Assembly: GCA_037445955.1 (NCBI GenBank)
Contig: JBBIJM010000007.1
Location: 1 to 49,212 of the forward strand
Reading direction: 5' to 3'
Source of the DNA: Syntrophobacterales bacterium
Lineage (GTDB): Bacteria; Desulfobacterota; Syntrophia; Syntrophales; CAMTWB01
DNA: 49,212 nucleotides
Positions 4,755 through 35,954 of the stretch are shown here, piece after piece. Position 1 is the stretch's first letter. Each line of letters starts with the position of its first letter. The notes under the pieces are model-generated. The model worked only from the letters and a program-made list of their open reading frames with translations, was not told the DNA's origin and searched no databases. Both the position numbers and the translations under genes were made by a program.

Positions 4755-6524
4755 ATGTCCAGATCCTCAAGGGGTATCATTCTTGCTAAAACCGCCGGGT
4801 TTTGCATGGGGGTGAAGCGGGCGGTGGATCTGGCCCTGGACGTTGCCCGCTGTCGTCAAGGGAGAAGGATTTATACTTACGGCCCCCTCATCCACAATCC
4901 CCAGACCGTTCAACTCTTAAGGTCAAAAGGGATAGAGCCCCTGTCTCAGGTTCCCCGGTTAAATGATGAAGAGGCCCTCATCATTATCCGGGCTCACGGG
5001 GTTTCTCCGCAAGAGATGGAGGAGCTCAAGGAAAAGGGTTATGAGGTAATCGATGCCACCTGCCCCAAAGTATCCCACGTCCAGGGGATTATCAGCAAAA
5101 ACCGCCGGCAGGGCTGCACCATCCTAATCGCCGGCGATCCGGAGCATCCGGAGGTTAAAGGTCTTGCCGGCTATGCCGAAAATGAGGCCACCGTCCTCAC
5201 GGACGAGGCGGAGGTAGACCTGCTGCCTTCCCTGGAGAAGATTTGCCTGGTCGCTCAAACCACCCAGGACGTGAAACACTATCAAACGATCGCCGATAGG
5301 TTGAAGAAACGCTTCCCTCAGACGGTGGTCTATAATACGATCTGCCAATCCACCGAGCTAAGACAGAGGGAAATAGAGAAGCTCGCCTCCGAAACAGAGG
5401 CCCTGGTGGTCGTAGGCGGAAAGAACAGCGCCAACTCGAGACGTCTGGCGGAGATCGCCCGGCTTTCAGGAAAGCCCTCGTTCCATATCGAAACGGCCGA
5501 TGATCTGGACGAAAAGACGATCAGCCGCTGCGGATCGATCGGTGTTTCCGCCGGGGCCTCCACCCCGAACTGGATAATCGACGAGGTATTAGAAAAAATC
5601 TCCACCGGTAAAGGCCGGTCTGAAAAGGGTATTTTCAATCTCCACAACCTCCTTCGCCTTTGGCTTTTTGCCGTTAGAACCGACCTTTACGCCGCCTGCG
5701 GTGCGGCCTGCCTGTCCTATTGCGCGGCGGTGGTGCAGCAGTTGAACGTGGAGCCGCTGAATCTCCTTACCGCCTCGTTTTATGTTTATGCGATCCACAT
5801 CCTGAACCGCTACATCAGCTCCAGAACCACTCCGGTAACCGGATCGTTCCGGGAAACCCTCTTTCTCAAATCCAAAAAGGCTTATCTCCGAACGGCCCTG
5901 CTGGCCCTGGCTTTTGCCCTGGCTATCTCCCTTATCTCCGGGGTTGATTCTTTCCTCTTGCTCTTTTCCCTCTCCCTCTTTGGGGCCGCCTATTACGTGA
6001 GGTTTCTGCCTTCCCGATGGCGTTTCCGAAGCCTGAGGGATATCCCCGGCTCGAAAAACATCGTCATCGCCCTGGCCTGGTCCGTGGTGGTCACCGTGGT
6101 TCCCCAGGTCAATGAAGACAGGCTTTTTACCCCGGGTCTTATTTCCATCTTTATCTTCACCTTCCTTATCGTGTTTTCCCGAACCGCCCTGGCGGATATC
6201 TGGAATCTGCAAAGCGATCGCCTTCTGGGCCGGGAGACTCTGCCCGTCATGATCGGCAGCAGCGCCGCGAGAAAACTAATTCGCGCCTCTGCCTTCCTGA
6301 TGCTCCTTATCCTGGCTTCCTGCGTTTACTTAGGGTTCCTCTCCCCGCCGGCTATCTTTCTTGTCTTTTGTGTTTTTTATCTCTGGATTTGTCTTGAGCT
6401 CTGTGGTAGAGAGGCAAGGTTTTCCGGATTGGTTCTGGAGGGCATCCTGGAGACCAATTATATCATCGCCGGAGTTGCAGCATTTGGGGGAAATCTGTTT
6501 TTTAACTGGCCAAACACCTTCTAA
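4755..6524 (+). CDS. ispH: 4-hydroxy-3-methylbut-2-enyl diphosphate reductase fused to a C-terminal UbiA-like membrane domain
   Basis: GFCMGV, LIHNP, RAHG, DATCP, HPEV, TIC and SAGASTP in the first ~285 aa. Then a multi-TM domain with DIWNLQSDRLLGRETLP. Confidence 0.93.
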   Translation: MSRSSRGIILAKTAGFCMGVKRAVDLALDVARCRQGRRIYTYGPLIHNPQTVQLLRSKGIEPLSQVPRLNDEEALIIIRAHGVSPQEMEELKEKGYEVIDATCPKVSHVQGIISKNRRQGCTILIAGDPEHPEVKGLAGYAENEATVLTDEAEVDLLPSLEKICLVAQTTQDVKHYQTIADRLKKRFPQTVVYNTICQSTELRQREIEKLASETEALVVVGGKNSANSRRLAEIARLSGKPSFHIETADDLDEKTISRCGSIGVSAGASTPNWIIDEVLEKISTGKGRSEKGIFNLHNLLRLWLFAVRTDLYAACGAACLSYCAAVVQQLNVEPLNLLTASFYVYAIHILNRYISSRTTPVTGSFRETLFLKSKKAYLRTALLALAFALAISLISGVDSFLLLFSLSLFGAAYYVRFLPSRWRFRSLRDIPGSKNIVIALAWSVVVTVVPQVNEDRLFTPGLISIFIFTFLIVFSRTALADIWNLQSDRLLGRETLPVMIGSSAARKLIRASAFLMLLILASCVYLGFLSPPAIFLVFCVFYLWICLELCGREARFSGLVLEGILETNYIIAGVAAFGGNLFFNWPNTF

Positions 6525-7122
6525 GTCCCGGCTTGCCAGAGGGATTTGGGCAATATCTTTACTTTTTCTGGCCGTCCTTCTTTCAGGATGTACAGCCGGC
6601 CGCCAGGCAACCCCCCCCGAAGACAGGGAAAACAGGCCGGCTAAGGTGGCGGTATTTCCGATAGAGCCCGGCCCATACTACGAAGCGAAGGTACCGGTCG
6701 AGAAGCTCCTTCTGGAGCTGCTGGGTCAGGGCAAGGCGTTTAGAGAAATTGTGTTGCCCTCTTCCCCGACCAAAGGGGAACAGGACAAGAAGAAAGAAAA
6801 GCTTATCCTTGATTATCTTGAAAAACTGAATATCTTACATTATTCCGATCCGGATTTAAGCCGGAAGATCGGGGAGGCCTGGTCGGCAAATGTCCTTCTT
6901 ATCCCCGGGATAGAATACTGGGGTTACTCGGCGGTCGGGAAGAACACCGTAGCCAAGATAGGCTTAAGCCTTATCCTGGTCGAGGCGGAAAGCGGCAAGG
7001 TAATCTGGAGGAGCGTCCAATACATCACCAAAAGGTATTACTATTTCAAACCGCCCCTCCCCGAGGTGGCGAGGGACCTCCTGAAAAGGATGCTCGAGCA
7101 AATGCCGGAGAGGCCAGGATAA
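6484..7122 (+). CDS. Putative lipoprotein (DUF799/CsgG/TolB-N-like fold)
   Basis: Hydrophobic stretch ending in lipobox LSGC; VAVFP and LVEAESGKVIW motifs. TTG 6484 has GGAG at 6471; start uncertain. Confidence 0.7.
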   Translation: MGEICFLTGQTPSKSRLARGIWAISLLFLAVLLSGCTAGRQATPPEDRENRPAKVAVFPIEPGPYYEAKVPVEKLLLELLGQGKAFREIVLPSSPTKGEQDKKKEKLILDYLEKLNILHYSDPDLSRKIGEAWSANVLLIPGIEYWGYSAVGKNTVAKIGLSLILVEAESGKVIWRSVQYITKRYYYFKPPLPEVARDLLKRMLEQMPERPG

Positions 7123-7166
7123 AGACAAACTAACTTCCGGATACCAACCGGGAAAGGATGAAAACC

Positions 7167-7388
7167 ATGAAAGAAAAAGTGCAAACGGTCCTCAATAAGG
7201 TAAGACCTAATCTGCAAGCCGATGGAGGCGATGTGGAGCTGGTCGATGTCAGCGAAGATGGGATAGTCAAGGTTAGATTGACCGGAGCCTGCCATGGCTG
7301 CCCGATGTCCCAGATGACCCTGAAAATGGGAATTGAAAGGTATTTACAAAAAGAGATTCCTGAAGTAAAAGAGGTCGTCTCTGAATGA
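7167..7388 (+). CDS. NifU C-terminal/NfuA-type Fe-S carrier
   Basis: [14 protein letters not shown] and [11 protein letters not shown]. Start is 7158 or 7167. Confidence 0.93.
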
Positions 7389-15304: not shown

Positions 15305-16348
15305 CTAGGCGTTTTTATCGCCGGTCACGTTTATCACGTTCGGCGAAGGGATAGCAATACCTTCTTCGCCAAAGCGCCGATGGAGTATTTTCAGGAAATT
15401 ATGGATTAGCTGCGGCTGCAACTTAAATTCCGTCGTCCGCAGGACAACGGTGAGTTTTATCCCATAGTCTCCGAAATTCACATAGCGGACTGTGGGCGTC
15501 CAAGAGGCGGCGCCGGAAGACTGTTCTTTCTCCAGACTTCCGGCAACCTCGTCAATGATCTTCTCTATCCGATCCAAATCCGATTTGTAGCTCACCATGA
15601 GGGGGATGCGGACGGCCAACTCCTGATCGGGCAGGTCGTAATTGGTTATCGACGCCGAGGCAATCTTCTGATTAGGCACGATTATCAGGTAATTAGCGGG
15701 ATTCAACAACGAGGTGGTTCGCCAGTTGATATCCTGAACATATCCCTCGTCTCCGGAATCGAGTTTTATATACTGCCCCAATCTTATCTGCCGGGAGACC
15801 AGGATATGCAAACCGGAAAACAAATTGGCCAGGGTATCCCGCAGGGCCAGGGCTACCGCCAGTCCCCCGACCCCCAGGGCGGTAAGGATCGGGGTGATGG
15901 AGATGCCCAGAGAATTCAGGATGATAAGAAGGCCGGTGATGTAGATGATAAGCTTGGTTACGTTCGACAGGATGGATATGGAATGGGCGATATTGTGGTT
16001 GCGCCGGGCGTAGAGGTTTACCAGTCCCTCCGTAATCCGTGCCACCACCAACGTTGCCGATGAGATCAGGACGATCAGGAAAAGCTTGTCAATCAGCCGA
16101 CTGATCGTCTCACCGAGATCAAGAAAGCCAGAGGCGGCATAGATACCGGCAACGGTGGCCCAGAGGGTCACCGTCCTCTTGAAAGCCGACAGAATTATCT
16201 TATCGCCTTCCCAGGGGGTCTTCGTGGCCAGTTTTTTTAAGCGGGATATAAGCGCCCTTTCTACGATCAGGCCGACAAAGAACCCCCCTGCGACAAAAGC
16301 GACTACTGGAAATAACACCTTGAAATAGGATATAGAGACGTCGAACAT
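15305..16348 (-). CDS. mscS: Small-conductance mechanosensitive channel
   Basis: LTALGVGGLAVALALRDTLANLFSG, G.V.DINWRTT and IIVPN. Confidence 0.92.
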   Translation of the reverse strand: MFDVSISYFKVLFPVVAFVAGGFFVGLIVERALISRLKKLATKTPWEGDKIILSAFKRTVTLWATVAGIYAASGFLDLGETISRLIDKLFLIVLISSATLVVARITEGLVNLYARRNHNIAHSISILSNVTKLIIYITGLLIILNSLGISITPILTALGVGGLAVALALRDTLANLFSGLHILVSRQIRLGQYIKLDSGDEGYVQDINWRTTSLLNPANYLIIVPNQKIASASITNYDLPDQELAVRIPLMVSYKSDLDRIEKIIDEVAGSLEKEQSSGAASWTPTVRYVNFGDYGIKLTVVLRTTEFKLQPQLIHNFLKILHRRFGEEGIAIPSPNVINVTGDKNA

Positions 16349-16425
16349 GAGGGCATACCTTAAAGAAGATTTTCCCGGATCTGTCCTTCATGTTATATCA
16401 CAAAGGACCTTATGAAAAAACCTTT

Positions 16426-16554
16426 ATTATACCTGACGGCACAAATCTTGTGTGGTTCGTAACTTGGGGCTCGACCAGGAATGCAGGGTATTTCCGGATT
16501 CCCGCTTTCCCGGGATTGACGGGATGGATCGTGATTAATATCGTCAGGTATAAT
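16426..16554. mobile_element. MITE-like non-autonomous element with 13-bp terminal inverted repeats
   Basis: ATTATACCTGACG (16426-16438) and CGTCAGGTATAAT (16542-16554) are perfect inverted repeats. The interior has a REP/dRS3-like GGATTCCCGCTTTCCCGGGATTGAC (16496-16520). Confidence 0.6.
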
Positions 16555-16675
16555 CGCATTTGATATTTTTTTAGGTAAAAACCCCTTGCAATTTTTTTTA
16601 AGATGAACCTAGCTAAAACTGGAATTGCCGTATGTTTAATCCCGTGGCAGCCAGAGGGAACAAATATCCTGAATT

Positions 16676-17527
16676 ATGATCAGCTCAAAGCAAGAGGAGT
16701 ACCTCCTGGCCAGGGCCTATCTGCCCGAACATATTGTGACCCTGATGGGCATCGTATCAAAAGGTGAACCTTTTTTTATCGATGACTGCCTGGTTTTTAA
16801 CGGAGATAACTGGACTATCCTTATCGGCTACCCTCTGGAAGAACCATTTACCCCGGAGGGATTAGAGGCAAAGATTGAAAAGATCCGCCGGGTATTCGGT
16901 CCCGAATACCTCTGGTTCATCTCTCCCGCCCCGCTGCGGACCGTTTCGGAACATTGCCGCGAAAGGGAGACAGATCAGTACTTTACCCTGGATATCTCAA
17001 GTGGACCGATAAATAACCGTCTCCGCTGTCTGGCCGAAAATGCCGCTAAGGTCTTGACGGTGGAGAGAAACCATTCCTTCTGCGCGGATAATCTTGAGTT
17101 GGTTGAGGAGCTGACCGGGCGGTCGGAGCTGAAGCCCAGGGTAAAGGCCCTCTACCAGGCCATGCCCGAATACCTTTCTCGCTCAAAAACCGCCCTGGTT
17201 TTAAATGCCCGGGACGGACAAGGCAGGCTCGCCGCCTTCCAGGTGATCGATCTGGCCGGAAGAGACTTCTTGGCGTATATTTTAGGCGCGTACTCCCAAG
17301 TCCATTATGTGCCCCATGCCTCGGATCTCCTTTTTTTCGAGATGACAAAAATCTCCCGGGAGTATGATAAGCAGACGATCAATTTAGGAATCGGCGTCAA
17401 CGAGGGAATAAGGAGATTTAAAAGAAAATGGGGCGGGAGGGTGTTTCTAGGCTACGAGTTCTACGAGTATCATTACCCCGCTTCGAGGACCTTCTTTCTT
17501 TTTGACCAGTTAAGGAGGATTTTTTGA
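16676..17527 (+). CDS. Hypothetical protein, GNAT/FemAB-like fold (paralog 1)
   Basis: 283-aa ORF. C-terminal ASDLL..INLGIGVNEGIRRFKRKWGG resembles the Fem/BioF2-type GNAT end motif. Clear paralog at 18371. Confidence 0.7.
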   Translation: MISSKQEEYLLARAYLPEHIVTLMGIVSKGEPFFIDDCLVFNGDNWTILIGYPLEEPFTPEGLEAKIEKIRRVFGPEYLWFISPAPLRTVSEHCRERETDQYFTLDISSGPINNRLRCLAENAAKVLTVERNHSFCADNLELVEELTGRSELKPRVKALYQAMPEYLSRSKTALVLNARDGQGRLAAFQVIDLAGRDFLAYILGAYSQVHYVPHASDLLFFEMTKISREYDKQTINLGIGVNEGIRRFKRKWGGRVFLGYEFYEYHYPASRTFFLFDQLRRIF

Positions 17528-17549
17528 TGGAAAGAGGATTGGATAATTT

Positions 17550-18374
17550 ATGAATTTGTTCTTTTGGCGGCCCCGGCGTCTAAAATCGGTCTATCGTTTG
17601 GAAAAACAAGAAAAAACGGCCCTCCTGGCGGGAACCGCCCATTTCTGTCCTTACAGCTTCGCCAAACCCCTCACTACCCTCATTGCCGCAGCGGAGATTG
17701 TGGTCTTTGAGGGTCCCCTCGACAAAGAAAGTATGGCCAGGGTAGTCTCTTACGGCAGAGATAAAGGGGATATGCCTTCCCTTTACCAGGCCTTAGACCC
17801 GACGGCAATCCGGGAGCTAAACAGCCGGTTGGCCTCGGTGATAAACGGGAATAATCCTACCGGCAGTTTCGTCGAATTCCTGAAGCCGCCGGAGCCAGAT
17901 TATGTTGAGGAGTTCACCAGAGACATCCGCCCCTGGCTTGCCTTCTTTACCATCTGGTCAACCCTTCTTGACTGGAAACATTCGATGGATGTGGAGGCCT
18001 TCAATATTGCCAGCAAGCTCAACAAAAGGATCCATTTTCTCGAGACCATCGAAGATCAGGTTCAGGCCATGGAAGGGATCCCCTTTGAACGTTTTGTCAA
18101 TTTCCTAAATAATGCAGCCGAATGGAAAAGCTACAAGACCAGGTATCTCAAAACCTTTCTCGGCGGAGATATCGAGAGCTTCAAAAATGTTCTCGCGGCC
18201 TTCCCGACCCGCTGCGATTCCATCCTGACCGCCCGGGATCCGATCTTTTTTAACGGGATAAAAGAGGCCATGAGGCAGGGAAAAACTACGGCCTTTGTGG
18301 GCAATGCCCACGTCCCCGGTCTCCTTTCCTTCTTCGCCGCTGAAGGGTACAACATCGACCAGGTGCGGGTATGA
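17550..18374 (+). CDS. TraB/GumN (TIKI-like) family metallohydrolase
   Basis: LAGTAH, VVFE, LETIEDQ, RD and FVGNAH motifs. No signal peptide. Confidence 0.8.
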   Translation: MNLFFWRPRRLKSVYRLEKQEKTALLAGTAHFCPYSFAKPLTTLIAAAEIVVFEGPLDKESMARVVSYGRDKGDMPSLYQALDPTAIRELNSRLASVINGNNPTGSFVEFLKPPEPDYVEEFTRDIRPWLAFFTIWSTLLDWKHSMDVEAFNIASKLNKRIHFLETIEDQVQAMEGIPFERFVNFLNNAAEWKSYKTRYLKTFLGGDIESFKNVLAAFPTRCDSILTARDPIFFNGIKEAMRQGKTTAFVGNAHVPGLLSFFAAEGYNIDQVRV

Positions 18375-19210
18375 TTACCGAACCGCAAAAGGTCTATATC
18401 AACGAACATGCCTACCTGCCGGAGCATCTTGTCCAGTATGTTTTGGCAATCTCCGGAGGGGAACCTTTTCTCCATAAAGATTTTCTCTTTTATCGCACCG
18501 CAGAGCGGATAATTTTCGTAGGTTACAGCCTTGAAGGAGAAACGGAGGAAGAGTCGCTCCAAGCCGCCTTAGCCGGTGTTTCCGACCGGTTTTCTCCAGT
18601 TGAGATAGCCCTTCTGGCCCCGGTGGTTCCGGCGAAATTCACCGGGGAGCCGGAATCCTTCGACGATTATTACCGGCTTAGCCTTGAGGCGCCGGTAATC
18701 TCGTCTAAAACCAGAAACATGTTAAGACGAGCCCAGGAGGCTCTATCGGTCAGGAGAATACGGGCCTGGACGGAAGAACATGAGGCCCTGATAGATGACT
18801 TCCTCTCCCGGCGCCCGGTGACGGAAGAGGTAAGGTGGATATACAAGAGAATAGGCCTCTATGTCTCTTCCTCCCCGGATGCCCTGGTTTTGGAGGCGAG
18901 AACTTCCCGGGGGGATCTTGCGGCCTTCGATATAGCGGATTTCTCCGCCCGCCACTTTGTCATGTACATGTTCAACTTTGTCTCCCGCAGCCATTACCTT
19001 CCCGGGGCTTCGGACCTATTGCTCGCCGGGATAATCGAAGAGGCAAGAAGGCAGGGGAAGGGTCAGATCAACCTTGGCCTGGGCATAAATCCCGGGGTGG
19101 TCTTTTTCAAGAAGAAATGGGGCGGGACCCCTTTCAAGAGGTATATCTTCTCCCGTCACCGGCCCGCCTCAAATCCTAAATGGCTCGGTTTTTTTAATTT
19201 TCTGAAATAG
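18371..19210 (+). CDS. Hypothetical protein, GNAT/FemAB-like fold (paralog 2)
   Basis: AYLPEH, GEPF, ASDLL and INLGLGINPG..FKKKWGG are shared with the 16676 ORF. ATGA overlap with the upstream gene. Confidence 0.7.
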   Translation: MITEPQKVYINEHAYLPEHLVQYVLAISGGEPFLHKDFLFYRTAERIIFVGYSLEGETEEESLQAALAGVSDRFSPVEIALLAPVVPAKFTGEPESFDDYYRLSLEAPVISSKTRNMLRRAQEALSVRRIRAWTEEHEALIDDFLSRRPVTEEVRWIYKRIGLYVSSSPDALVLEARTSRGDLAAFDIADFSARHFVMYMFNFVSRSHYLPGASDLLLAGIIEEARRQGKGQINLGLGINPGVVFFKKKWGGTPFKRYIFSRHRPASNPKWLGFFNFLK

Positions 19211-19217
19211 CCTGCCC

Positions 19218-19970
19218 TCAAGACTCCCAGCCTGTCCACATCTGCTTTAAATAGGCCGTCTTTGTTCGGCCAAGGGTGGAGAGGTAGATGTGAACGATCA
19301 GGAAGGCAACAAAGATGCAGCCCAAAAGATAGTGGATGGCGGTTATGACCCTCAAACCACCAATTAGGGAAAGATATTCCCTCAAGACATCGACAAACAT
19401 CAGGGAGAGCCCGCTTAAGATCACCAGGGGCAGGGAGAAAAACATGATTATAAAATAAACGATCTTCTGGAGGGGGTTGAACTTATTTGCCGGGGTGGAG
19501 GTATGGGGGTTGGGTTTCCCCTGGAAATATTCGGAAAGGTAGAATCGGAGCTGGGGGATCAGTTTAGTCTTTATCTCGTTTGCCTCCGGAAGATAGATGG
19601 CAAAGAGGCTCCGGGATACAACATAGTAGCCAAGCCAGATAAGATATGAACCGGCAACTACCACTCCGACGGTATCGTGAAGATTTATCGCAGCCTTGAA
19701 AGAGCCGAACAACTCGATACGATCGGCAAATCTAAGCTGGATACCGGAGATGATCAAGGCTACCATACCCAGGGCATTGAGCCAGTGCCAGATTCTCACC
19801 GGAGCGGGAGTCAGGTAGAGAGGCTCGTGGGTTGCCGCCTCGGTCTTCCCCTTTCTTCTAGTTCGGCGGGTAATCATCCGGGCGGTCCCGTGGGCCAGGG
19901 GAACAGCAAAGCCCAGCGAAACCATCATGATACCGGCCGTGTTCATCAGGGTGCTTCTCGATGCCCCCAT
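19218..19970 (-). CDS. Di-heme cytochrome b (Ni_hydr_CYTB/CbcB-like); probably the C-terminal part of a frameshifted cytochrome c-b fusion
   Basis: VRIWHW, NLHD, KFNPLQK, AIHY, IVHIY and MWTGW, plus an extra N-terminal TM helix. Confidence 0.85.
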   Translation of the reverse strand: MGASRSTLMNTAGIMMVSLGFAVPLAHGTARMITRRTRRKGKTEAATHEPLYLTPAPVRIWHWLNALGMVALIISGIQLRFADRIELFGSFKAAINLHDTVGVVVAGSYLIWLGYYVVSRSLFAIYLPEANEIKTKLIPQLRFYLSEYFQGKPNPHTSTPANKFNPLQKIVYFIIMFFSLPLVILSGLSLMFVDVLREYLSLIGGLRVITAIHYLLGCIFVAFLIVHIYLSTLGRTKTAYLKQMWTGWES

Positions 19971-21118: not shown

Positions 21119-21235
21119 AGTTACAAGCTATAAACCCTTCAGGCCAAAGGAGTCATCTCGAGGGGATCAGGGGTGGCATCATGAAAGCTTTTCATTCTCG
21201 TCATCTTCTCCCTGCAATCGAGGCGACAAGTATGA

Positions 21236-21308
<73 letters not shown>

Positions 21309-21329
21309 CCTTAAATGAATCAGCCCCAG

Positions 21330-21358
21330 CCTATATCCCAACGCCGGGACCTTGTCAA
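21330..21358 (-). promoter_or_regulatory. Putative sigma70 promoter of tRNA-Thr
   Basis: Minus strand TTGACA-17 bp-TATAGG. Confidence 0.5.
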
Positions 21359-21460
21359 CGGCCTCCTTGCTCTTTTCCCGATGTTTTTTTCGATCTTTAT
21401 CCTTGCACCATCTTACGGGATGGCTTAAAAGGGGAAACCTTACAGCGAAGCGAGGCTTAT

Positions 21461-22309
21461 GTGAGCATCACCGAGGCAGTGTTTCTCGGTATAATCCAGG
21501 GACTGACCGAGTTTCTTCCCATAAGCAGCACAGGTCATTTAACCCTGGCGGGGAAACTGTTTAAGCTTATCTCCGAGTCAAATCCGGAAAAATGGACCGC
21601 CTTTATCGCCGTCATCCAGCTCGGGACGCTGCTTGCGGTCCTGGTTTATTTTCGCAGAGACTTATCCGCCATAACAATAGCCTTTTTCAAGGATAATCTC
21701 TTTGCCCCCAAGGCTATCGGAAAGCAATCCCCCGATTCCCTCTGGGGATGGTACCTGATCCTTGCCACCCTGCCCATCATTGTGATCGGCCTCGGATTTA
21801 AGACGGTTATTGAAGGAACATTTACAAAAAATCTTTATGTAATAAGCGGAAGCCTGATCATATTTGCCCTGATCCTTGCCCTTGGGGAAAGATGGGGGAA
21901 ATTTAACCGTTTGTCCGGTGAGTTACGCTGGTCCGACGCCCTTTTAATCGGGATCGCCCAATCCTTTGCCTTAATCCCCGGGGCCTCCCGCTCCGGGACA
22001 ACAATCACAGCCGGTCTGCTTTTGGGTTTCAACAGGGAGACGGCGGCCAGATTTTCCTTTCTCCTTAGCATTCCGGCGATTGCCGCAAGCGGGATGCTAC
22101 AGTTCTTTCAAACCCTAGGTTATCTCGACCGAAGCCTGGCGGTAAATGTTATCCTGGCCGGTCTCCTGGCCGGGATTGTCGGCTATCTGTCCATCGAGTT
22201 CCTCCTGCGATATTTGAAAAGACAATCGACGTCGATCTTCATTATCTATAGAATCGTCCTGGGCCTTTTCATGCTGGTTCTCTTAAACCGGGGAGTAATT
22301 TCTCCCTGA
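21461..22309 (+). CDS. uppP: Undecaprenyl-diphosphate phosphatase
   Basis: LGIIQGLTEFLPISSTGH, IPGASRSGTTI and AARFSFLLSIP. GTG start at 21461; the ORF-track start lies inside the tRNA. Confidence 0.95.
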   Translation: MSITEAVFLGIIQGLTEFLPISSTGHLTLAGKLFKLISESNPEKWTAFIAVIQLGTLLAVLVYFRRDLSAITIAFFKDNLFAPKAIGKQSPDSLWGWYLILATLPIIVIGLGFKTVIEGTFTKNLYVISGSLIIFALILALGERWGKFNRLSGELRWSDALLIGIAQSFALIPGASRSGTTITAGLLLGFNRETAARFSFLLSIPAIAASGMLQFFQTLGYLDRSLAVNVILAGLLAGIVGYLSIEFLLRYLKRQSTSIFIIYRIVLGLFMLVLLNRGVISP

Positions 22310-34100: not shown

Positions 34101-34155
34101 CGCGGTCTGCGAGGCCAAGCGGTGTCTCCGCTGCGATTACCGAGCCGAAAGCTAA
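31108..34155 (+). CDS. hydB: NuoF-like FMN/NADH subunit (HydB/HndC) fused to a GltD/NfnB-like FAD-NAD(P)H domain
   Basis: N-terminal [2Fe-2S], LRGRGGAGFPTG, NADEGDPGAFMD, CGEETAL, GGPSGG, ESCGKCPPCR. Then PCQNACP, CGRICFHPCESKCRR, VGAGPAG, IGGGNAAID, YRRT and EAKRCLRCD. Confidence 0.92.
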   Translation: MKVFRSHLLLCGGTGCHASGSQAVKAALIDQINKKGLGEEVKVVETGCNGFCAQGPILVVYPEGVVYMSLKPEDMPELVEEHFIKGRIVQRLLYREPLSKEVIPAMKDIPFFALQELRVLRNRGIIDPEVIDEAIARDGYAGMAKALTEMTPEAIIKEVLDSGLRGRGGAGFPTGLKWRFCSQSPGNIKYVICNADEGDPGAFMDRSVLEADPHAVIEGMVIAAKAIGSSHGYIYCRAEYPLAIHRLNIATAQAREYGLLGQNILGTGFNFDLDIYQGAGAFVCGEETALMTSIEGKRGMPRPRPPFPALSGLWQKPSILNNVETFANIGQIIHKGASWYNSIGTEKSKGTKVFALTGDVNNIGLVEVPMGIQLGEIIYEIGGGIQKGKKFKAAQLGGPSGGCIPAAHLNTPVDFEKVTELGAIMGSGGLIVLDEDKCAVDVARFFMDFVQEESCGKCPPCRVGTKRMLEMITDICNGKGKEGDIEKLIELGNSIKDTALCGLGQTAPNPVLSTIRYFRDEYEAHIVEKRCPAGVCPELVRAPCQNACPAGVDVPGFVSLVGEERYSEGLKLHRERNPFAEICGRICFHPCESKCRRSSLDEPLAIRQVKRFMTGMEKEPLLPEFRASEINATRKIAIVGAGPAGLSCAYFLARLGYKPQVFEAAPRAGGMMVQTIPEYRLPRQAIEKEVKMIENTGVKINYGSRLGRDFTLLSLRDQGYEAVFLGVGVPYGSKMGIPGEDLIGVTDAISYLREYNLTGKAPAGNNVVVIGGGNAAIDAARTALRLGAKEVTLLYRRTRFEMPAWAEEIHEAEIEGVKLNFLVAPIEAVSLNGRVSALKCAKMELGDYDRSGRRRPVAVKGKDFEVKADLVISAIGQYLDEKEIFAGLNVETNKSGYVKVDPLCARTSIEWLYAGGDVTVGPSSVVEAIAWGEKAAVGIDQALTGTDNAFWRKEKVLDTFFDPDADPIDAKRAPLLNLSLSERMGNFKEVEKALPAASAVCEAKRCLRCDYRAES

Positions 34156-34175
34156 GACAAAAGGAGATCATACCT

Positions 34176-35954
34176 ATGCCAAAACTTACCGTAAACAACA
34201 TTGAAGTAAACGTTCCCGCCGGAACGACCATCCTTGATGCGGCCCGGGAAATCGGGATCAAGATTCCCACCTTGTGCTACCTGAAGGATCTCCAGGCGAT
34301 AGGCGCCTGCCGGATGTGTGTGGTTGAGGTGGAGGGAGCCAAGACACTGTCCGCCGCCTGCGTCACCCCGGTCGTCGAGGGAATGGTTGTCCAGACCAAC
34401 AGCACCCGGGCCAGGGAAGCCAGAAAAACTGTATTGGAACTGATCCTCTCGGAGCACAACGGCGACTGTCAAATCTGCAGCCGCTCTGAGGATTGCGAGC
34501 TCAAATCAATGGCCAATGATCTGGGTATTAAAGAGGTGTTTTACGAAGGCGAGAAGACCAGATCAATCATCGATGATTCTACCCCGGCCCTCGTGCGGGA
34601 TACGGGGAAGTGTATCAACTGTCAGCGCTGCGTCACCGTCTGCAGCGAGGTGCAAAGCGTCACCGCCCTGTTCCCTCAAAACCGGGGATTTGAAACTATC
34701 ATCGGGCCCCCGGTAAACACCAACCTGGCGGGAGTCTCCTGCGTCCAGTGCGGTCAATGTTCCGCCGTCTGTCCCGTCGGGGCGATTACCGAGAAAAACG
34801 ACATCGACCGGGTTTGGGCCGCCATCAACGATCCCGACACCTTGACCATCGCCCAGACCGCCCCGGCTATTCGGGCGGCGGTGGGTGAAGGTTTCGGCAT
34901 GCCGGCGGGAACCCTGGCCACCGGCAAAATGGTCGTGGCCCTGCGCCGTTTGGGCTTTGACTACGTCTTCGATACGGAATTTACCGCCGACTTAACGATC
35001 CTCGAGGAAGGAACCGAACTCCTAACCAGGCTCAAAAACAAGCTAGTCGAGGGCGGCGATGCCAAATTGCCCCTCTTTACCAGCTGTTGTCCCGCCTGGA
35101 TAAAATTTTCCGAATATAACTACCCGGAACTTCTTGATAACCTCTCCACCTGCAAGTCTCCCCAGCAGATGTGCGGGGCGGCGGTGAAGACTTACTACGC
35201 CAAGAAAATAGCGAAACATCCCAAAAACATCTTCGTCTGCTCGATCATGCCCTGTACGGCCAAGAAGTACGAGGCTCAGCGGCCGGAAATGGAAAGCAGC
35301 TGGACCAGAGATGTGGACGTTGTCCTTACCACAAGAGAGTTTGCCAAGATGGCCAAAGAGGCGGGGATTGACTTTGTCAACCTTCCCGACGATCAGATGG
35401 ACGCCCCTCTTGGCCTGGCCACCGGCGCCGCCGATATCTTCGCCAACACCGGCGGGGTTATGGAGGCAGCCCTGCGCACCGCCTACGAACTGGTCACGGG
35501 AAGGGTTTTACCCTACGATAAGATGCATGTGCTGCCCATCCAGGGTTTGGAGGGGGTCAAGGAGGCCTCCATCAAGATCGAAGGCGCCGTTCCCGACTGG
35601 TCATTCCTCGAAGGGGCAACGCTCAACATCGCCGTAGTCCACGGCCTGGCCAATGCCCGCAAGGTGGTAGAGGCGGTAAAATCCGGCGAGAAGAACTACC
35701 ACTTCATCGAGGTGATGACCTGTCCCGGCGGCTGCATAGGCGGCGGCGGCCAGCCTCGCTTCACCACTATGGAGATCAGAAAGGCGAGGATTCAGGCTAT
35801 TTACAAGGAGGACGAGTTCAAGGAGCTCCGTAAATCCCACGAGAATCCCGACGTAATTAAGATCTACAAGGAATTCTTTACCAGCCCCCTGTCCCATAGA
35901 TCCCACAGCTTCCTCCATACCCACTATAAACATAGGGGCCGGTACGAAAGTTAA
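34176..35954 (+). CDS. hydA: [FeFe]-hydrogenase catalytic subunit, group A ([2Fe-2S], His-[4Fe-4S], 2x[4Fe-4S], H-cluster)
   Basis: H-cluster motifs TSCCPAW, MPCTAKKYE and EVMTCPGGCIGGGGQ; HNGDCQIC; two CxxCxxC ferredoxin motifs. AAGGAG precedes ATG 34176. Confidence 0.97.
   Translation: MPKLTVNNIEVNVPAGTTILDAAREIGIKIPTLCYLKDLQAIGACRMCVVEVEGAKTLSAACVTPVVEGMVVQTNSTRAREARKTVLELILSEHNGDCQICSRSEDCELKSMANDLGIKEVFYEGEKTRSIIDDSTPALVRDTGKCINCQRCVTVCSEVQSVTALFPQNRGFETIIGPPVNTNLAGVSCVQCGQCSAVCPVGAITEKNDIDRVWAAINDPDTLTIAQTAPAIRAAVGEGFGMPAGTLATGKMVVALRRLGFDYVFDTEFTADLTILEEGTELLTRLKNKLVEGGDAKLPLFTSCCPAWIKFSEYNYPELLDNLSTCKSPQQMCGAAVKTYYAKKIAKHPKNIFVCSIMPCTAKKYEAQRPEMESSWTRDVDVVLTTREFAKMAKEAGIDFVNLPDDQMDAPLGLATGAADIFANTGGVMEAALRTAYELVTGRVLPYDKMHVLPIQGLEGVKEASIKIEGAVPDWSFLEGATLNIAVVHGLANARKVVEAVKSGEKNYHFIEVMTCPGGCIGGGGQPRFTTMEIRKARIQAIYKEDEFKELRKSHENPDVIKIYKEFFTSPLSHRSHSFLHTHYKHRGRYES

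Follow-up and report, generated by a model that had tools for sequence, protein, structure and literature searches.

Aminoacyl-tRNA-dependent transferases that work outside translation are, to our knowledge, few, and each known case has started a field of its own: bridges of the cell wall, aminoacylation of lipids with drug resistance, tagging of N-degrons, and antibiotics. The TraB/Tiki superfamily carries the motif set GxxH/E/ExxxxQ/RD/GxxH, and as far as we know the biochemical roles of its bacterial members are largely unknown. Radical S-adenosylmethionine (SAM) enzymes with a SPASM domain serve the PQQ and mycofactocin cofactor pathways. Pathways of the peptide aminoacyl-tRNA ligase (PEARL) type add residues from aminoacyl-tRNA, tailor them and cleave them off. 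We analyzed a locus from a Syntrophobacterales bacterium (GenBank assembly GCA_037445955.1, contig JBBIJM010000007.1, positions 1 to 49,212; this whole stretch of 49,212 nucleotides is called the window) in which genes A and B encode paralogous putative transferases and lie on either side of gene T, which encodes a TraB-family protein. In most related loci a fourth gene, R, encodes a radical SAM/SPASM enzyme. Gene order, three combinations of gene fusion and co-inheritance make it very probable that A, T, B and R act together.

Known systems resemble this set in part. According to a 2026 review (PMC12945691), GNAT enzymes that use aminoacyl-tRNA have their substrate site between two GNAT domains, and they also have a helix that binds tRNA and a catalytic lysine, for example K305 in FemX and K329 in DhpH-C, the latter preceded by F328. 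FemX/FemA/FemB and the natural-product enzymes Sbb17/Sba18, Orf11, DhpH-C, DhpK, PacB and VlmA show only 10–16% sequence identity, and none of 121 scanned A-type and B-type proteins matched Pfam FemAB at E ≤ 0.1. Unlike A and B, these transferases are not known to have a TraB hydrolase or a radical SAM/SPASM enzyme as partner or fusion domain. MprF and ErdS have a basic helix between their two GNAT lobes (PMC7334510). The present system shares with MprF and the DUF2156 proteins (PF09924) the double GNAT, the basic inter-lobe helix, the adjacency of transferase and hydrolase genes, and PF09924 matches among B-type members. As in the aminoacyl-lipid pairs, the hydrolase gene is adjacent or fused to a transferase gene (20/20 genome and 60/61 informative metagenome loci). 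It differs from MprF and ErdS in having neither a flippase or membrane domain nor an aminoacyl-tRNA synthetase fusion, from MprF and ErdS/ErdH in having a TraB/Tiki-type rather than an alpha/beta hydrolase, and from both in having two paralogous transferases plus R. It differs from DUF2156 in that A and B of the window fall below the PF09924 threshold, a profile–profile comparison is negative and the genome has a separate DUF2156 gene.

T is a full-length member of the TraB/PrgY/GumN family and Tiki superfamily with all motif residues kept. It departs from that family in being soluble, without C-terminal membrane segments, and in sitting between, or fused to, tandem-GNAT transferases. The logic of PEARL, PQQ and mycofactocin pathways would apply here too, with a SPASM enzyme beside a peptidase. 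The transferases here are GNAT-fold, whereas those of PEARL pathways are LanB-like, and no scaffold or precursor gene and no RiPP recognition element (RRE) or PqqD domain was found, RiPP denoting peptides made by the ribosome and modified after translation. The nearest published mention, in PMC8939145, is of Tiki/TraB peptidases and SPASM maturases in some graspetide loci. A preliminary description of the window had stated that no system with such a layout was known, and our literature search agrees. The full-text literature searched, with supplements and most subscription journals outside it, contains no combination of TraB with Fem/MprF-type transferases or with this radical SAM family, which is not proof of absence. 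The novelty is an architecture that combines two paralogs with a TraB hydrolase and a radical SAM/SPASM enzyme; a tRNA-dependent GNAT transferase with a dedicated hydrolase is known already.

Conservation of the four genes

Matches to A and B occur in 41 of 401 sampled genomes of the phylum, nearly always two per genome, and in 5 of 41 close relatives, so the distribution is patchy. The carriers are sulfate-reducing and syntrophic anaerobes, together with subsurface and hot-spring metagenomes, and the module is also found in records labelled Anaerolineae, Spirochaetota, Desulfovibrio and Mailhella. A tblastn search of plasmids with an A-T-B fusion gave no match. All 20 genome loci that were fetched contain the three genes; 17 have the order A-T-B and 3 have B-A-T. 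A metagenome scan yielded 467 confirmed loci, of which the best 80 were kept; at 44–54% identity to A, these represent one broad clade. Counting only loci on contigs long enough to show the gene in question, we find T in 60/61, B in 51/51 and R in 38/39, and the order is A-T-B-R. The exceptions are L151, which has no T; L155, with no R within 2.6 kb; L106, with the order B-A-T-R; and L158, in which the T-B-R block is inverted. The preliminary description had proposed a unit of three genes. That set is real and is kept in genomes and metagenomes alike, but the unit has four enzymes, with R after B or fused to it.

R is a protein of about 365 aa that directly follows B in most loci, as seen by clustering of neighboring open reading frames (ORFs) and by Pfam matches to Radical_SAM and SPASM. 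It lies within the fetched flank in 14/20 genome loci. An R-family match at E ≤ 1e-40 was found in 36 of the 38 genomes with a strong A-T-B match, and in the other two (G361, G397) A-T-B is at a contig end or the genome is 79% complete. The same threshold is reached in 55 of the 360 genomes without an A-T-B match; both sets consist of related genomes, and the counts are not a statistical test. R can stand alone, and A-T-B almost never occurs without R. The genome studied here has its R on another contig (G000:C49:11660-12790; 47% identity to the R of L060, E 3e-109), so R cannot be seen from the window. It begins 9 nt past dsrP and is the last gene of a cluster (locus L064, C49:1-12790) that contains dsrAB, one small ORF, an amidase gene resembling CobB/DsrN, a further pair of DsrM/K-like genes, and dsrMKJOP; the order of R after dsrP is repeated in a related genome, G001 (L065).

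The nearest NCBIfam models to R are TIGR04311 (95–167 bits, cut-off 400) and TIGR04317 (81–160 bits, cut-off 380), both putative metalloenzyme or tungsten-enzyme maturases that R matches far below cut-off; the Atlas name is similar. Only Radical_SAM and SPASM were found in R, with no RRE or PqqD domain, and there is no room for an RRE because the first cluster cysteine is at about residue 27.

Gene fusions tie the four genes together further. The profile search returned proteins of about 570–910 aa, and a dedicated search with domain mapping resolved 35 longer forms into 24 A-T-B, 9 A-T and 2 B-R. Four A-T-B fusions were read: P0124, P0141 and P0307 are full, whereas in P0324 (790 aa) the C-terminus of the B part is garbled. 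Both B-R fusions retain the CxxxCxxC and C-terminal CxxC of R. The fusions come from Mailhella, Desulfovibrio and a Spirochaetota metagenome-assembled genome, under the record names ‘GNAT family N-acetyltransferase’, ‘TraB/GumN family protein’ and ‘PqqA peptide cyclase’. An apparent A-R fusion (L075:5453-7429 in G165, an ORF of 658 aa) was rejected. It consists of A plus T's N-terminal half and R's C-terminal half, and we regard it as an in-frame deletion remnant rather than a functional fusion because the rest of T, all of B and the CxxxCxxC of R are missing.

When 18 sequences of each type, A and B, are placed in a maximum-likelihood tree, the two types split on a branch with 100/99 support and the two subtrees have near-mirror topologies, from which we conclude that one old duplication was followed by joint inheritance. 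G001 (L051) belongs to the same taxonomic family as the window genome, carries a fused A-T subtype and groups with a different family in the tree; comparison of the two subtypes suggests horizontal movement of the whole module.

Two neighbors recur. A YeiH-like membrane protein (PF03601, 510 aa) is encoded beside R in 19/32 long metagenome loci, also in L041, L054 and L060, and beside R in four genomes in which R is unlinked to A-T-B or A-T-B is absent (L066, L068, L072, L074). This protein has a Lys-rich insert, about 100 residues long, that follows its first membrane segment; gene coordinates include L041:2716-4248, L060:8493-10031, L072:7583-9115 and L083:11705-13240. The second neighbor, dsrAB, adjoins the cluster in L060 and 7/32 long metagenome loci. 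In the lineage with fused genes (L051–L059) there are no dsr genes nearby, and the YeiH-like gene was found only as a partial match in L054. The link to sulfur metabolism is thus a lead that possibly reflects a single ancestral arrangement rather than a general property.

Fold and motifs of A, B and T

BLASTP aligns A and B at 34% identity across 276 columns (E 2e-51), and the alignment contains every shared motif that had been listed for them (AYLPEH, S.GEPF, GY.LE, D.Y..L, HY.P.ASDLL and INLG.G.N.G...FK.KWGG). Relatives of A number 1020 proteins at E ≤ 0.001 out of 1818 scored candidates, and detection of the A/B family is far beyond chance. At the same E-value, the profile search gave 608 representative clusters (50% identity), a new and sizeable branch of the aminoacyl-tRNA transferase fold. 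Its members always occur as a pair of paralogs, and gene order and natural fusions link them to a TraB/Tiki hydrolase and to R.

Neither A nor B reaches the thresholds of PF09924, PF02388 or PF13480; since no curated threshold is reached, their assignment to a family depends on fold and on weak matches in relatives. Among 64 B-type relatives, PF09924 (LPG_synthase_C) is matched at E ≤ 0.1 by 47 (best 1.7e-8), Acetyltransf_6 by 37, and ATE_C weakly by 4. The 57 A-type relatives match Acetyltransf_6 (PF13480) in 21 cases and PF09924 in 2. When the whole genome is scanned, PF09924 picks another gene, neither A nor B. The genome's own stand-alone DUF2156 gene (C29:25722-26264, PF09924 108 bits) is unlinked to A-T-B, and such genes are present in 31/41 related genomes searched. 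A DUF2156 gene that adjoins A-T-B in G001 was taken as a coincidence, being found at 1 locus among 114 in three BLAST sets.

The AlphaFold2 model of A, built with 29 relatives, has a predicted local distance difference test score of 90.4 and a predicted template modeling score of 0.86. Foldseek matched it with probability 1.00 to the lysyl- and alanyl-phosphatidylglycerol synthase domains of MprF, to FemX, to DUF2156 proteins and to Sbb17/Sba18. The model contains two tandem GNAT domains with a cleft between them, and the fold thereby bears out the proposal that A and B are double GNATs like Fem and the C-terminal part of MprF. The helix at residues 114–124, between the lobes, is a candidate for binding the tRNA acceptor arm and shows positive charge in both families: Lys or Arg occupies two positions in 84% and 81% of A-family sequences, and five positions in 84%, 75%, 83%, 95% and 77% of B-family sequences. 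F248-K249 is invariant in the 57 A-type sequences; all 64 B-type sequences have F246, and at least 90% of them have K247. This Phe-Lys dyad may correspond to K305 of FemX, the agreement being only in the distance to where the structural alignment ends (22 versus 23 residues). Residues of B that are invariant or nearly so are D98, D215, G236, F246, K247, K249 and W250, and an N-terminal (A/x)xVPEH motif is kept in both families. On the ranking of folds, the motifs and the weak family matches, aminoacyl-tRNA is the best-supported donor for A and B and is probably the right one.

T matches PF01963 (TraB_PrgY_gumN) over profile positions 2–262 of 263 (E 1.3e-23; score 84.6 bits, cut-off 26.8), and a genome-wide scan with this model also picks it up. 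Residues G28, A30, H31, E54, G55, P56, D147, E165, Q170, R221, R229, D230, G251 and H254 are invariant in 20/20 T orthologs and correspond to the superfamily motif set. The catalytic motifs that had been noted in T as intact, here GTAH, EGPL, LETxxxQ, RD and GxxH, are conserved throughout the orthologs. From its sequence, T appears to be a soluble TraB/Tiki-type protein and a putative metal-dependent hydrolase. Foldseek with T at E ≤ 0.001 returned three chains, all of one Tetrahymena complex IV subunit, and does not separate esterase from peptidase; EreC and BcR135 appear only at E > 0.2. Searches of PDB sequences with T alone and with the T-family profile gave chance-level rows only (E > 0.3). 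A second TraB-family gene of the genome (C39:10774-11409, 120 bits, in a 387-aa frame) is unlinked to A-T-B. At L043:6479-7283 in G324 the T match is split between two frames (6479-6934 and 6948-7283), which could be a frameshift or an assembly error.

Proposed pathway and alternatives

From the observed folds, active-site motifs, gene linkage, fusions and co-inheritance we infer, as a plausible but tentative scheme, that A-T-B-R is one cytoplasmic module that builds, tailors and hydrolyzes, fed by aminoacyl-tRNA and acting on a common acceptor. A and B, as non-redundant Fem/MprF-C-type transferases, would most likely draw aminoacyl groups from aminoacyl-tRNA and load them consecutively onto an amine or hydroxyl of the shared acceptor. 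R would carry out a radical tailoring step on the substrate of A and B. T would hydrolyze an ester or amide bond in the intermediate, which would release the product or else trim or correct it. A physical complex of all four proteins is probable. The acceptor is more likely a small molecule, a cofactor or a protein than a leader-bearing peptide.

Several observations weigh against this scheme. A has zero Pfam or NCBIfam matches at E ≤ 1, and the sole family match of B is to Acetyltransf_6 (PF13480; E 0.025, 15.2 bits against a cut-off of 22). By hhalign, the alignments of A and B matched 21 stand-alone DUF2156 proteins from related genomes with a probability below 1%, and PDB sequences yielded only chance-level rows (E > 0.3) for the A-family profile and for B alone. 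In the window, A itself diverges from its relatives, with C118 and N122 at both of the best-conserved basic positions of the inter-lobe helix. No dedicated tRNA was seen (tRNA genes occur in 3/35 related loci, each different), no tRNA-like element is linked to the module, and an aminoacyl-tRNA synthetase is neither fused, among the 35 longer forms, nor linked. The A-T-B operon of this genome is without R, and co-regulation is not evident here. At least three genomes (G086, G378, G428) have a high-scoring R ortholog but no A-T-B match, so R has a role of its own. Finally, fusion of a transferase to a hydrolase also fits an enzyme with opposing activities.

Opposing activities of writer and eraser, on lipid II, a lipid or a peptide, were what the preliminary description proposed. 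In such a scheme A and B would aminoacylate a membrane lipid or other cell component, using two different amino acids or two acceptors, and T would be the esterase that removes the groups. The esterases EreA/B belong to the same superfamily as T, the fold of A resembles the MprF and DUF2156 synthase domains, B-type members match PF09924 as counted above, and the YeiH-like protein beside R could move a lipid or solute. Pairs of synthase and hydrolase are established, both ErdS/ErdH and hydrolases beside mprF, but the known erasers are alpha/beta hydrolases and not TraB proteins (PMC7334510). Further, A, T and B have no membrane segment and their tails are not demonstrably amphipathic, the YeiH-like gene is not found in the fused-type loci apart from the partial match in L054, and joining opposing activities covalently in an A-T-B protein would be futile without regulation. 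The obligate R and the B-R fusions would have no role. This logic is one that the module could follow, but a consecutive pathway accounts at least equally well for the A-T and A-T-B fusions, the obligate R and two paralogs that are ancient and non-redundant. Because the paralogs stayed distinct after their early duplication and R is obligate, we favor consecutive steps over pure writing and erasing, which we consider unlikely though still in contention.

A different donor is also an unlikely solution: A and B could be acyl-CoA-dependent N-acyltransferases, like the BioF2/CelD proteins of Acetyltransf_6, in a module that acylates and deacylates a metabolite. Many members match Acetyltransf_6, and the family is not confined to tRNA-dependent enzymes, which also counts against our scheme; the fold ranking and motifs point to aminoacyl-tRNA.

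Alternatively, the module could mature a protein, with R as maturase, T as processing protease, and A and B adding residues to the new terminus or a side chain; the client of R would be a protein of metal or sulfur metabolism, possibly a component of the Dsr machinery. Tiki and RRSP are endopeptidases of the superfamily of T. The NCBIfam models nearest to R, far below their cut-offs, and its Atlas name point to metalloenzyme maturases; R has no RRE-sized N-terminal domain; R lies right after dsrP in this genome and in G001; dsrAB adjoin the cluster in the loci given above; and 4/64 B members match ATE_C weakly. Against this, the dsr neighborhoods may stem from one ancestral arrangement in one lineage, other lineages have no dsr gene within about 5 kb, records labelled Anaerolineae and Spirochaetota carry the module as well, and no candidate target gene is conserved beside it in the clustered genome and metagenome neighborhoods. 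We regard this role as quite improbable.

A classical RiPP pathway is disfavored because neither a precursor peptide nor an RRE was found. Upstream of A, the window and 20 loci have no small ORF in common, and none is conserved in metagenome clusters or A-T gaps, though a precursor encoded elsewhere is possible. Four small-ORF clusters (c4, c5, c10, c14) were rejected as ORF-calling artefacts: they lie inside B, which is dropped when the R ORF is called too long. In 16/67 metagenome loci (L130, L113, L144, L134, L099, L131, L137, L127, L097 and others) the A-T spacer is 159–357 nt instead of about 42 nt and contains unrelated repeat-like inserts. Several of these translate to Gly/Glu/Pro-rich strings, which are typical of small interspersed repeats.

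A more specific form of the consecutive pathway, which we regard as a long shot, is a precursor-free and ribosome-independent route to a small crosslinked molecule derived from amino acids, a cofactor or signal like PQQ or mycofactocin. A and B would each bring one amino acid from aminoacyl-tRNA onto a carrier, possibly another aminoacyl-tRNA or the terminus of one of the four proteins. R would crosslink or rearrange the pair, and T would cut the product free. If so, radical SAM chemistry would for the first time be paired in one pathway with tRNA-dependent ligases of the Fem type, and a bacterial TraB-family protein would gain a defined catalytic role. Whatever the product, which could matter for anaerobic sulfur metabolism or envelope physiology, the module context offers a direct way to assay a bacterial TraB-family protein, and the natural single-chain A-T-B and B-R proteins are ready-made test reagents.

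The locus in the window

Table 1. Coordinates of the three genes and their leader in the window
Feature	Positions	Strand	Description
Gene A, 283 aa	16676-17527	+	Tandem-GNAT protein, A-type of the Fem/MprF-C-like family; putative aminoacyl-tRNA-dependent transferase
Gene T, 274 aa	17550-18374	+	Soluble TraB/PrgY/GumN protein (Tiki superfamily); putative metal-dependent hydrolase
Gene B, 279 aa	18371-19210	+	Tandem-GNAT paralog, B-type; ORF call, 34% identity to A
Leader, 327 nt, AT-rich	16349-16675	+	Separates a divergent MscS-like gene from gene A

The genes are tightly packed (Table 1). A and T are separated by 22 nt (stop at 17527, start at 17550) that contain a Shine-Dalgarno-like AGAGGA, and the stop of T overlaps the start of B in an ATGA at 18371-18374, as had been described. 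The flanking genes, an MscS-like channel upstream and a cytochrome b561-like gene with a multihaem cytochrome downstream, run on the opposite strand, so A, T and B form an operon of their own in the window. A sigma-70-like site lies at 16516-16544 in the leader, which is not significant given 3 such sites in the region against 2.5 expected. An Rfam scan of 16000-19500 found zero families at E ≤ 1.

No membrane segment or signal-like stretch was found in A, T or B, whose highest 19-residue Kyte-Doolittle means are 1.29, 1.33 and 1.14, respectively; the value for T agrees with the reported absence of a signal peptide. The preliminary description also saw Phe-rich amphipathic tails in both paralogs and considered a possible membrane association. 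The tails are indeed Phe-rich (4 of the final 14 residues in A, 3 of the final 13 in B). Their helical hydrophobic moment is no better than that of shuffled tails, the observed value being reached by 649/2000 shuffles for A and 1201/2000 for B, and the tails vary across the family, with no conservation in the consensus of A or B. With no membrane segment either, membrane association through the tails is unsupported.

The tRNA genes nearest to A-T-B in the window are Thr(CGU), 2 kb downstream, and Arg(CCG), 4.4 kb downstream. The ORF called at 21251-22309 starts inside the opposite-strand tRNA-Thr(CGU) gene (21234-21309); its BacA/UppP match begins past a later start near 21431, and the first 60 or so residues are probably untranslated. 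ARAGORN also calls an 87-nt tRNA-Ile(GAU) at 34778-34864, with the anticodon at position 39, within a long ORF (34122-35954); this call may be false, or the tRNA may be intron-bearing or odd.

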